Below, one piece after another: positions 55,851 to 56,666 of a stretch of 64,000 nucleotides of DNA. Numbering within the stretch: the stretch's first letter is position 1; each line of letters opens with the position of its first letter. The translations under genes and the position numbers were made by a program. The notes beneath the pieces were generated by a model. It had not been told where the DNA came from and searched no databases. It saw only the letters and a list, made by a program, of their open reading frames with translations. The DNA is from Candidatus Aenigmatarchaeota archaeon (lineage in GTDB: Archaea; Aenigmatarchaeota; Aenigmatarchaeia; QMZP01; QMZT01): contig JAPLVC010000006.1 in the NCBI GenBank assembly GCA_026397315.1, positions 95,975 to 159,974 of the forward strand, read 5' to 3'.

Positions 55851-55969
55851 GCGGGGGTAGCCAAGCGGTTAAAGGCGATAGAACGGTCTTGAACTCTGAT
55901 TCAAGATGATGTCGACGCTCAAGACCTATTCACTTAGTGTGTTCCAGGGTTCGAATCCCTGCCCCCGCA
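55851..55969 (+). tRNA. tRNA-Leu(CAA) with 35-nt intron inside anticodon stem (between nt 30/31)
   Basis: Acceptor GCGGGGG/CCCCCGC, 3-bp D-stem, mature anticodon arm ATAG|G-CTCAAGA-CCTAT only after removing AACGG..GTCGAC; long variable arm; T-arm CAGGG-TTCGAAT-CCCTG. Confidence 0.7.
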
Positions 55970-56006
55970 TTAACTGCTAAATAAGTATTAATGAGGGTTC
56001 ATTTTT

Positions 56007-56588
56007 ATGGCAAAGGTAAAGGTTCTTATTGAAGGGTATGCCCATGAAGGCAATGGATGTTATGAAGCAACTAGCACTACTGTTTTGATTGAAGATTCTG
56101 GAAAGAAAATAATTGTTGATCCTGGCTGCAATGAAGAATTGCTGTTGCAAGCGCTGAAAGGAGAAGGACTAACACCAAAAGATATTGATTTGATTTTTTT
56201 GACACATTATCATATTGACCATGTTCTGAACATAAGACTGTTTCCTGGGAAAGATATCTTGGATGGAAACATAATTTATCGTGGCGACAAAGAATTCTCT
56301 TTTAAAGAAAAAATACCTGGAACAAATATTGAAATTATCGAAACCCCCGGTCACGCACATGAGCATACAACACCCTTAGTCAAAACGGAAAAAGGGATTA
56401 TAGCAATAGCAGAGGACTTATGGTGGTGGGAAGATGAAAAACAAAAAACCGACAAAAAATCGTTGTTATCTTTAAAAGATCCTTTTGTTAAGGATGAAGC
56501 GGCTTTGTTAAAAAGCAGAAAAATAATCATAGAAAAAGCGGACTTCATTATTCCAGGCCACGGAAAAATGTTTAAAGTTGAAAAATAG
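56007..56588 (+). CDS. metallo-beta-lactamase fold hydrolase
   Basis: THYHIDH (HxHxDH) motif; AT-rich cargo between tRNA-Leu and its 3'-end duplicate. Confidence 0.75.
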   Translation: MAKVKVLIEGYAHEGNGCYEATSTTVLIEDSGKKIIVDPGCNEELLLQALKGEGLTPKDIDLIFLTHYHIDHVLNIRLFPGKDILDGNIIYRGDKEFSFKEKIPGTNIEIIETPGHAHEHTTPLVKTEKGIIAIAEDLWWWEDEKQKTDKKSLLSLKDPFVKDEAALLKSRKIIIEKADFIIPGHGKMFKVEK

Positions 56589-56612
56589 CTGGCTAGCGGG
56601 TTCTAATGGCGA

Positions 56613-56636
56613 TTCGAATCCCTATCCCCGCATTAA
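56613..56636 (+). repeat. duplicate of tRNA-Leu 3' end (TTCGAATCCCTATCCCCGCATTAA), att-like direct repeat
   Basis: 22/24 identical to 55949-55972. Confidence 0.6.
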
Positions 56637-56666
56637 AGCCTTTTGGAAAAAGGCTTTATCGAAAAA
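56635..56666 (+). repeat. family-2 hairpin element, free-standing copy (AAAGCCTTTTGGAAAAAGGCTTTATCGAAAAA)
   Basis: 30-nt identity to the first 30 nt of the tRNA-Ser intron (61064-61097, opposite strand). Confidence 0.55.

Follow-up and report, generated by a model that had tools for sequence, protein, structure and literature searches.

The 64,000-nucleotide stretch of contig JAPLVC010000006.1 analyzed here (the window), from a Candidatus Aenigmatarchaeota archaeon, carries exactly behind a tRNA-Leu(CAA) gene a 663-bp segment that was gained recently, after the split from the closest sampled relative. The segment holds a single gene for a small protein of the metallo-beta-lactamase (MBL) fold, and comparison with loci from other assemblies, designated here by L numbers, indicates that leader, MBL gene, and a tRNA-like tail moved as one unit, which landed at the end of at least two different tRNA genes. 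We tentatively favor the reading that this unit is an integrase-less, non-autonomous cassette that was mobilized in trans and inserted at tRNA 3′ ends.

The intact target gene occupies positions 55851 to 55969 on the plus strand (Rfam tRNA model, 42.4 bits). ARAGORN recovered it, with a 35-nt intron at 55883-55917, when introns were allowed, and missed it in the default mode. Its 3′ end recurs downstream: GGTTCGAATCCCTGCCCCCGCATTAA at 55948-55973 and GATTCGAATCCCTATCCCCGCATTAA at 56611-56636 are identical at 23 of 26 positions without gaps, and 22 of 24 positions agree between 55950-55973 and 56613-56636. The downstream copy was the sole second match in the 64 kb when up to three mismatches were accepted, and 0 of 100 dinucleotide-preserving shuffles gave one. 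The left, attL-like repeat TTCGAATCCCTGCCCCCGCATTAA (55950-55973, plus strand) comprises the T-loop, the 3′ strands of T-stem and acceptor, the discriminator A, and the 4-nt trailer TTAA, and the closest relative, L002, has the same sequence at its empty site. The right, attR-like repeat TTCGAATCCCTATCCCCGCATTAA (56613-56636, plus strand) runs straight on into the native downstream flank. The longest exact block common to both copies is the 11-nt sequence CCCCGCATTAA, which is the likeliest crossover region.

With one repeat copy counted, the inserted segment spans 55974-56636 on the plus strand, and the insertion point lies 4 nt past the discriminator base. From the repeat to the ATG extends an AT-rich leader of 33 nt (55974-56006, plus strand), in which GAGGG may serve for ribosome binding and TAAATAAG may be a TATA-like box. 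The cargo open reading frame (ORF; 56007-56588, plus strand), on the same strand as the tRNA and starting 37 nt from its end, encodes 193 amino acids with a Pfam Lactamase_B match at E=6e-15. The post-stop region (56589-56636, plus strand) places a 24-nt spacer between the stop and the right repeat; the tRNA-like tail starts within it at 56596 and reads GCGGGTTCTAATGGCGATTCGAATCCCTATCCCCGCA followed by TTAA. Left junction, gene, and right junction were all reproduced in the independent assembly L001 (Logan SRR20698647). An earlier interpretation made from the letters alone (the sequence-only reading) had described both the duplicated tRNA-Leu 3′ end, TTAA included, with 22 of 24 matches, and the AT-rich, 193-residue MBL-fold gene between the copies; the pattern search and shuffles bear out the former, and the Lactamase_B match and a GC content of 0.36 the latter.

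Related genomes were found via the TopA gene 450 bp downstream, which yielded nine contigs with 70 to 92% identity, assigned to Candidatus Aenigmatarchaeota or to unclassified archaeal metagenome-assembled genomes (MAGs); eight of them span the site. The gene order p486 - p98 - tRNA-Gly - p198 - tRNA-Leu - p83 - TopA was kept in all eight and the MBL gene was present in none, as judged by tblastn and blastn of the flanks, alignment, and the intergenic sequences. In L002 the flanks are 93 to 94% identical to those of the window, and the tRNA-Leu exons are 100% identical over both exon blocks (blastn). Its tRNA end ...CCCCCGCATTAA (GCATTAA) runs directly into AGCTTTTTAGAAAAAAGC... (AGC...), the orthologue of the window sequence 3′ of the second repeat; for the intron-less variant of the window, the predicted empty-site junction is ...AGTGTGTTCCAGGGTTCGAATCCCTGCCCCCGCATTAAAGCCTTTTGG. 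Because eight relatives are free of the cassette and the tRNA end is contiguous with the far flank in L002, the segment was inserted and is not ancestral. The comparison with related genomes that the sequence-only reading had proposed thus disclosed empty sites in eight related Aenigmatarchaeota genomes, and not the same arrangement everywhere.

A second insertion was recognized at L014, where the order is Transglut_core - tRNA-Gly(GCC) - MBL (82% identity) - Lyase_1. Relatives of this locus were fetched via the downstream Lyase_1 gene (L100, with a 74% identical lyase; L101 and L102, with 70%), and all three show Transglut_core - tRNA-Gly(GCC) - Lyase_1 - ribosomal protein genes, the MBL gene being absent. 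The left junction of L014 reads GCCGCACT|TAATAAA... and the right junction ...CAATTCGAATACCATCCACA|CTCTATTTTTCCACAAGC, against the empty native sequence GCCGCA|CTCCTTTTTTTCCACAAGC. The insert measures 656 bp and its flanks are 89 to 93% identical to L100, whereas the 30 nt before the right junction match the tRNA-Gly 3′ end at just 17 of 33 positions. Given this difference in identity, the tail of L014 is not a decayed duplicate of its target.

The tail of the window was instead found to be related to the tails of other cassettes. The stretch at 56596-56632, GCGGGTTCTAATGGCGATTCGAATCCCTATCCCCGCA, aligned with GCAGGTTCTAACCCCAATTCGAATACCATCC of L014 (p<0.0005) and, over 42 nt, with CTAGCGGTTTCTGATTCTGGTTCGAATCCCATCTCCCGCAT of L026 (p<0.0005); restricted to the part upstream of the T-loop, the alignment gave p=0.0015 for the window versus L026 and p=0.0065 for the window versus L014. 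The motif GCRGKTTCTRAYNNNRRTTCGAATMCC occurs exclusively behind MBL genes, in three contexts (the window with L001, L014/L015/L017, and L026) among 103 loci plus the window, and the MBL genes of the window, L026, and L014 form one clade in the tree. In the cassettes compared, the tail starts 7 to 10 nt after the stop codon; in the window it is about 41 nt long (56596-56636). As the L014 tail follows tRNA-Gly and yet matches it at only 17 of 33 positions, at least the left part of the tail travels with the gene, and the right repeat of the window is the 3′ end of the tail and not simply the displaced native tRNA end. The tail folded no better than shuffles, as RNA or DNA (z scores of -0.4 to -0.9). 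An RNA-level role, for instance as a processing signal, is therefore unsupported, and a tRNA-like minihelix or an attC-like hairpin was rejected since no signal rose above the shuffles.

Homologues with at least 73% identity proved to lie beside tRNA genes in other genomes as well: a same-strand tRNA ends 11 to 127 nt upstream of the ATG in 8 of 10 distinct genomic contexts. The upstream tRNA is Gly(CCC) in L011, L012, L016, and L097 (91-126 nt to the ATG), Gly(UCC) in L013 (63 nt), Gly(GCC) in L014, L015, and L017 (35 nt), an intron-containing, Gly(GCC)-like tRNA in L018 (16 nt) and in L019 to L021 (11 nt), Leu(UAG) in L091 and also before the 64% identical copy of L025, L027, and L028 (12-13 nt), and Leu(CAA) in L099 (about 81 nt) as in the window (37 nt). 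No upstream tRNA was present in L096 and L098, both from low-GC genomes. The same loci outside the MBL pairs contained about 26 tRNA-like matches in 487 kb, both strands counted, and against this background the adjacency is far above expectation.

Other MBL copies were likewise compared for a repeated end of the tRNA in front of them. Such repeats were not significant in L011, L013, L091, L025, and L079, and reached significance in the window and in L090, where an MBL homologue (49% identity) stands behind tRNA-Gln(CUG) and the tRNA-Gln 3′ end recurs, gapped, 20 nt after the MBL stop (p=0.0005). In L018, L019, and L036 the stop codon is immediately followed by another copy of the acceptor end, CCTTCGCA(TT), each match being individually weak. 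For L099 (73% identity) a possible tail gave p=0.011; its gene falls outside the tail-bearing clade, and we treated this case as uncertain. The L090 locus (330-470 and 1046-1090) also contains an orphan tRNA 3′ fragment, AGGTTCGAATCCTATCGCACGAGCA, between tRNA and MBL gene and a decayed tRNA-Gln end after the gene. In L029 and L030 (about 3400-4620), two tandem MBL paralogues 1 nt apart are followed 35 nt on by a same-strand tRNA-Arg(CCU).

The composition of the segment points to a foreign source. GC content is 0.36 over 55974-56610 and 0.49 in the whole window, and the composition check proposed by the sequence-only reading marked the cargo as foreign, its GC content at third codon positions (GC3) being 0.30 versus 0.61 to 0.76 in the four neighbors p83, TopA, p198, and p486. 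A few other window ORFs are also low in GC3, so composition by itself would not decide the matter. The family of the cargo protein comprises 1,665 database clusters at E≤0.001, with members of about 193 to 195 amino acids, the named ones stemming from MAGs of Aenigmarchaeota, Diapherotrites, and Micrarchaeota. A homologue of native type in Aenigmatarchaeota (L103) is 61% identical, has a GC content of 0.54, lies in a HIT - MBL - GatB cluster, and falls outside the clade of the inserted gene. The window copy groups with homologues at 73 to 85% amino acid identity from genomes of 25 to 60% GC, and its nearest nucleotide relative (82%) is from a 29%-GC genome. By these comparisons the cargo gene is a xenologue from a low-GC lineage. 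In L103 (3547-6090) the native MBL gene is flanked by a HIT-family gene on one side and gatB/gatE-like genes on the other, with gatD upstream, and HIT-family genes are also found next to or near the MBL gene in the low-GC genomes L013 and L096; the HIT-MBL proximity may represent a functional neighborhood.

Searches for mobility machinery gave no candidates. Integrase-family Pfam matches were absent from the island, whose single ORF is the MBL gene, and from all 47 window ORFs with 150 or more amino acids; these 47 are ordinary core genes (ribosomal proteins, EF-2, MetRS, TruD, PCNA, RadA, glycosyltransferases). The minimal cargo without integrase that the sequence-only reading had noted was thereby confirmed. 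The matching plasmid or virus that it had suggested looking for did not turn up: the cargo protein had no relative in IMG/VR or the phage collection and only distant Streptomyces homologues in the plasmid collection, and both the predicted circular attP junction ...GATTCGAATCCCTATCCCCGCATTAACTGCTAAATAAG and the tail motif were absent from IMG/VR. Terminal inverted repeats were found neither in the window nor in the L014 insert.

Mobilization in trans could proceed as follows. The tail would imitate the T-arm and acceptor end of tRNA genes and serve as an attachment site, and a recombinase supplied from outside, by a partner element or by another genome, would recombine the tail's terminus with the corresponding terminus of a tRNA gene. 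The core of the exchange would be about CCCCGCATTAA in the window and CACT in L014, leaving an imperfect direct repeat. Placed behind a tRNA gene, the cargo may be expressed from the tRNA promoter, by read-through together with processing of the RNase Z type, or else from the short leader that it brings along; judged from the 11 to 16 nt that separate tRNA and ATG in several genomes, read-through expression is plausible. We prefer site-specific recombination in trans since it accounts for a right end that stays constant at different tRNAs where junction identity amounts to just 4 to 11 nt, and our order of preference continues with repair-based capture and then with the independent decay of larger elements. 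The sequence-only reading had left a choice between a decayed element and one mobilized in trans; of these, the latter fits better, as the same minimal unit of 656 to 663 bp occurs at a different tRNA in another lineage. Its description of the repeats as classic attL/attR sites of site-specific integration holds for the insertion at the tRNA 3′ end. The tyrosine recombinase that this implied is putative, as no recombinase, circular form, or partner was found. In addition, the second repeat is part of the tail.

Several observations weigh against the trans-mobilized cassette. Viral contig scans and the phage and plasmid collections yielded no recombinase, autonomous partner, circular junction, or excision product. 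The three mismatches of the right repeat (88% identity) also fit neutral decay of a displaced native copy, the adjoining spacer being 81% identical to L002, and at L014 the junction identity amounts to only 4 to 7 nt. No conservation is recognizable between the leaders of the two cassettes, in the window and in L014, although a defined attP would be expected to keep a conserved arm there. Not all of the tRNA-adjacent contexts count as independent, since homology links the spacers of Gly-CCC and Gly-UCC. The close homologues L096 and L098 have neither tRNA nor tail, and homologues below 60% identity are mostly ordinary chromosomal genes with no adjoining tRNA; mobility is for these two reasons a property of a sub-lineage and not of the family. 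An exception below 60% identity is a separate small clade, L090, L056, and L079, located behind tRNA-Gln, tRNA-Lys, and tRNA-Arg.

Capture by host repair, without a recombinase, is a rather unlikely explanation. Foreign DNA of the form tRNA - MBL - tRNA-like tail would have entered by homology-facilitated illegitimate recombination or double-strand-break repair, with the tRNA as the left homology anchor and the similarity of tail and tRNA 3′ end (11 to 24 nt; 4 to 7 nt in L014) as the right joint. tRNA genes are the only sequences conserved enough across distant archaea for such anchoring, and the differing leaders of the cassettes and the failure to find an integrase agree with this route. 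The window tRNA-Leu has no variable-arm intron, whereas L002 and L003 as well as L004, L005, L007, and L009 do, as expected if its 3′ half had been replaced by that of a donor; this intron is, however, also missing in L006 and L008, which are both cassette-free, and its loss is common here. A resemblance of 56589-56612 to the D-arm in the 5′ part of tRNA-Leu could mean that the tail is an internally deleted second tRNA copy from a Campbell-type homologous event; it gave p=0.003 with permissive gaps but was not significant with strict gap penalties (p=0.09) and had no support in L026 or L014. The position of a low-GC LAGLIDADG endonuclease gene against the 3′ end of another tRNA in the window would also suit repair capture. 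On the other hand, homologous recombination would have had very little homology to work with on the right, and repair alone does not explain how the upstream tRNA switched from Leu-like to Gly while the tail was kept.

Decay is the usual end and commonest fate of elements integrated at tRNA genes. A larger integrative element with its own integrase might accordingly have entered tRNA-Leu and been reduced by deletions to the MBL gene and two att sites, and both the imperfect repeats and the orphan tRNA 3′ fragment between tRNA and MBL gene in L090, as seen at repeatedly used integration sites, would agree with such a history. We nonetheless regard it as improbable. Content and size are the same (663 and 656 bp), with the tail 7 to 10 nt past the stop, at two tRNA targets verified by empty sites and in a third genome, and independent decay would have had to arrive at near-identical end products; moreover, the 33-nt leader and the tail hold no pseudogene fragments, and the cargo has no viral or plasmid relative in IMG/VR and the phage and plasmid collections. 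That there was no insertion at all, the gene being ancestral and precisely lost from eight relatives, the repeat due to chance, or the locus a chimera that an assembler built across conserved tRNA sequence (such joins can occur in MAG assemblies, and T-loops are conserved between organisms), is excluded for practical purposes and most improbable in view of the absence from eight relatives at graded distances, the GC3 of 0.30 against a background of 0.6 to 0.76, the 0 of 100 shuffles with a repeat, exact blocks of at most 11 nt that are too short to fool an assembler, native flanks on both sides that would require two chimeric joins, the same junctions in the independent Logan assembly, and the presence of the L014 version in JGI and ENA assemblies.

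Compared with known systems, the island resembles tRNA-targeting integrative elements of archaea and bacteria, i.e., proviruses, plasmids, and islands with tyrosine recombinases, such as the SSV-type, the pNOB8-type, and SNJ2 (PMC5861418, PMC6563490). It shares with them insertion at the 3′ end of a tRNA gene that stays intact, an imperfect direct repeat at the borders, foreign composition, and empty sites in relatives. It differs in its size of 0.66 kb, its single gene without integrase, replication, or structural genes, its repeat of 24 nt (11 nt exact), and a tRNA-like piece that extends past the repeat and is conserved between cassettes at different tRNAs. In short, it works like a tRNA-site integrative element but does not encode its own integrase. 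Closer in this respect are the cis-mobilizable elements (CIMEs) of Firmicutes, att-flanked, integrase-less elements derived from ICEs (integrative and conjugative elements) or integrative and mobilizable elements (reviewed in PMC5704250), with which it has in common att-like flanks, the lack of recombination and transfer genes, and a presumed dependence on the integrase of a related element. CIMEs are, however, bacterial, several kb long, and have a known cognate ICE at the same att site, whereas the island is a single gene in a DPANN host with no known cognate, the genomic sequence covered being the 64-kb window and loci of up to 22 kb. It contains no mobility genes and recurs as a minimal unit at two empty-site-verified sites (663 bp at tRNA-Leu; 656 bp at tRNA-Gly in L014); apart from the cognate autonomous element it matches the definition of an att-flanked non-autonomous, CIME-like element.

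Integron gene cassettes offer a functional analogy: a single, apparently promoter-poor ORF with a recombination-site-like 3′ sequence, placed in one orientation behind a promoter-bearing platform and mobilized in trans. Unlike them, the island has no IntI or attI (among the window ORFs), its tail is not an imperfect palindrome of the attC type, any of several tRNA genes would serve as the platform, and no arrays were seen. Casposons and other transposons also target tRNA 3′ ends (PMC4779613) and, like the island, duplicate target sequence there; the island has neither terminal inverted repeats nor Cas1 or a polymerase, its duplication is imperfect, and the "duplicate" of L014 matches its target at 17 of 33 positions. 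A casposon, a DDE-type transposon, or a derivative of the miniature inverted-repeat transposable element kind was rejected in the absence of terminal inverted repeats and an exact target-site duplication. It is possible, though doubtful, that the MBL gene with its tRNA-mimicking tail stands for an undescribed class of minimal archaeal cassettes of about 0.65 kb, single-gene and integrase-less, homing to varied tRNA 3′ ends across DPANN, with the tRNA as attachment site and promoter or processing signal, i.e., a tRNA-based functional analogue of integron cassettes. The second, distant MBL clade of L090, L056, and L079 may behave likewise.

The cargo protein has intact metal ligands (H67xH69xD71H72, H116, D137, and H185), which are invariant in an alignment of 36 family members. 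Its best sequence match in the PDB was human MBLAC1 (4v0h, E=1.5e-15), and with an AlphaFold2 model of high confidence (predicted local distance difference test score of 94.7) Foldseek likewise returned 4v0h as the best structure (TM score of 0.83, 30% identity). The features of an MBLAC1-like subgroup are all present, namely HxHxDH with downstream His, Asp, and His ligands, the alpha-beta/beta-alpha fold, and MBLAC1 as the closest protein. MBLAC1 has been described as a histone pre-mRNA 3′-end endonuclease (PMC6303110). The cargo, by model and alignment, is predicted to be a small di-metal hydrolase closest to this RNA 3′-end endonuclease: it shares the best sequence and structure match and the conservation of all MBL metal ligands, but it is archaeal and has 193 amino acids instead of 266, and 30% identity does not establish nuclease activity. 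NCBIfam gave sub-threshold matches alone, to lactonases, glyoxalase II, and RNase Z. A precomputed annotation label, Anti-Pycsar Apyc1 (PF23023), was rejected, there being no hmmscan match even at E values up to 10 and no viral relatives in IMG/VR and the phage collection, and for a defense role PADLOC gave only weak generic MBL matches. One may speculate about a role in nucleotide or RNA metabolism, at which the recurrent proximity to HIT-family and tRNA genes hints.

The orthologous tRNA-Leu(CAA) genes of L002 to L009 (e.g., L004, 9261-9715) have one to four introns each at varying positions, in the D-loop, anticodon loop, variable arm, and T-loop, and their presence or absence differs among close relatives. 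The intron-family hairpin that the sequence-only reading had placed directly after the second repeat is real: this 31-mer, AAGCCTTTTGGAAAAAGGCTTTATCGAAAAA, at 56636-56666 (plus strand) recurs exactly at 61065-61095 (minus strand), inside the intron of a tRNA at 60981-61130 (minus strand). Since the hairpin also follows tRNA-Leu in the empty-site genome L002, it is a native 3′ trailer element outside the island. Members of this hairpin family were also seen at 36800-36840 in the window, at 9545-9605 in L002, in the D-loop introns of tRNA-Leu in L004 and L005, and in a tRNA-Gly intron of L101; by its distribution it looks like a mobile tRNA-intron family that can occur beyond the mature tRNA as well. 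The 3′ end of the MBL ORF (56571-56590) and the native p83 promoter region (56760-56779) form a 20-nt inverted match (90%), probably an AT-rich coincidence, because the empty-site genome has the second arm too. At the tRNA-Leu/p83 site of L003 there is an extra segment of 2.5 kb (7117-9676) with two additional genes, for a solute-binding protein (SBP_bac_1) and a HAMP-domain coiled-coil protein; it has no att-like repeat and a native GC3, and was rejected as a second integration on account of these two properties.

Elsewhere in the window, the ORFs at 39241-39933 (plus strand, GC3 of 0.36) and 37157-37939 (plus strand, GC3 of 0.43) stand among core genes, with no Pfam match and no adjoining tRNA or tail motif; they may be other horizontally acquired single genes. 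An intron-rich tRNA at 36762-36902 (plus strand), with the acceptor GCCTCGG/CCGGGGC, escaped ARAGORN as well as Rfam, the latter at both gathering and E-value thresholds. Behind it stands a very small and strongly basic ORF, MAPCGRKRKRKKIKKHKLKKRRKKMRHRKK, similar to ribosomal protein L41e, and owing to this native L41e-like mini-ORF in between, the nearby ORF 37157-37939 was rejected as a case comparable to the island. Another foreign single gene abutting a tRNA 3′ end is the ORF at 42775-43518 (plus strand, GC3 of 0.28), with a LAGLIDADG_3 homing-endonuclease match, which ends inside the 3′ end of a multi-intron tRNA on the opposite strand (about 43503-43712, minus strand) that went unreported by both Rfam and ARAGORN.

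The genomes of DPANN archaea are very small, and these organisms are considered to rely strongly on genes acquired from their neighbors; the route by which single genes enter these genomes is poorly documented. The island is a traceable case of such gain: it can be dated to the time since the divergence from a relative whose TopA is 92% identical, its junctions are resolved to the nucleotide, and there is a second, independent insertion at another tRNA. Should the cassette reading prove wrong, the locus would remain a textbook case, and a clean one, of a tRNA-site islet and of the acquisition of a xenologous gene in Aenigmatarchaeota. To specialists, a recurrent, empty-site-verified single-gene cassette at tRNA ends with a tRNA-mimicking tail should be noteworthy. 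The cargo appears to be the closest prokaryotic-type relative of MBLAC1 and is persistently found beside tRNA genes, which may point to a link with tRNA or RNA 3′-end metabolism. If the reading as a trans-mobilized cassette is true, a recombinase recognizing T-arm and acceptor DNA would have to be sought, and tRNA gene ends would be general landing pads and expression platforms for promoter-poor archaeal genes.

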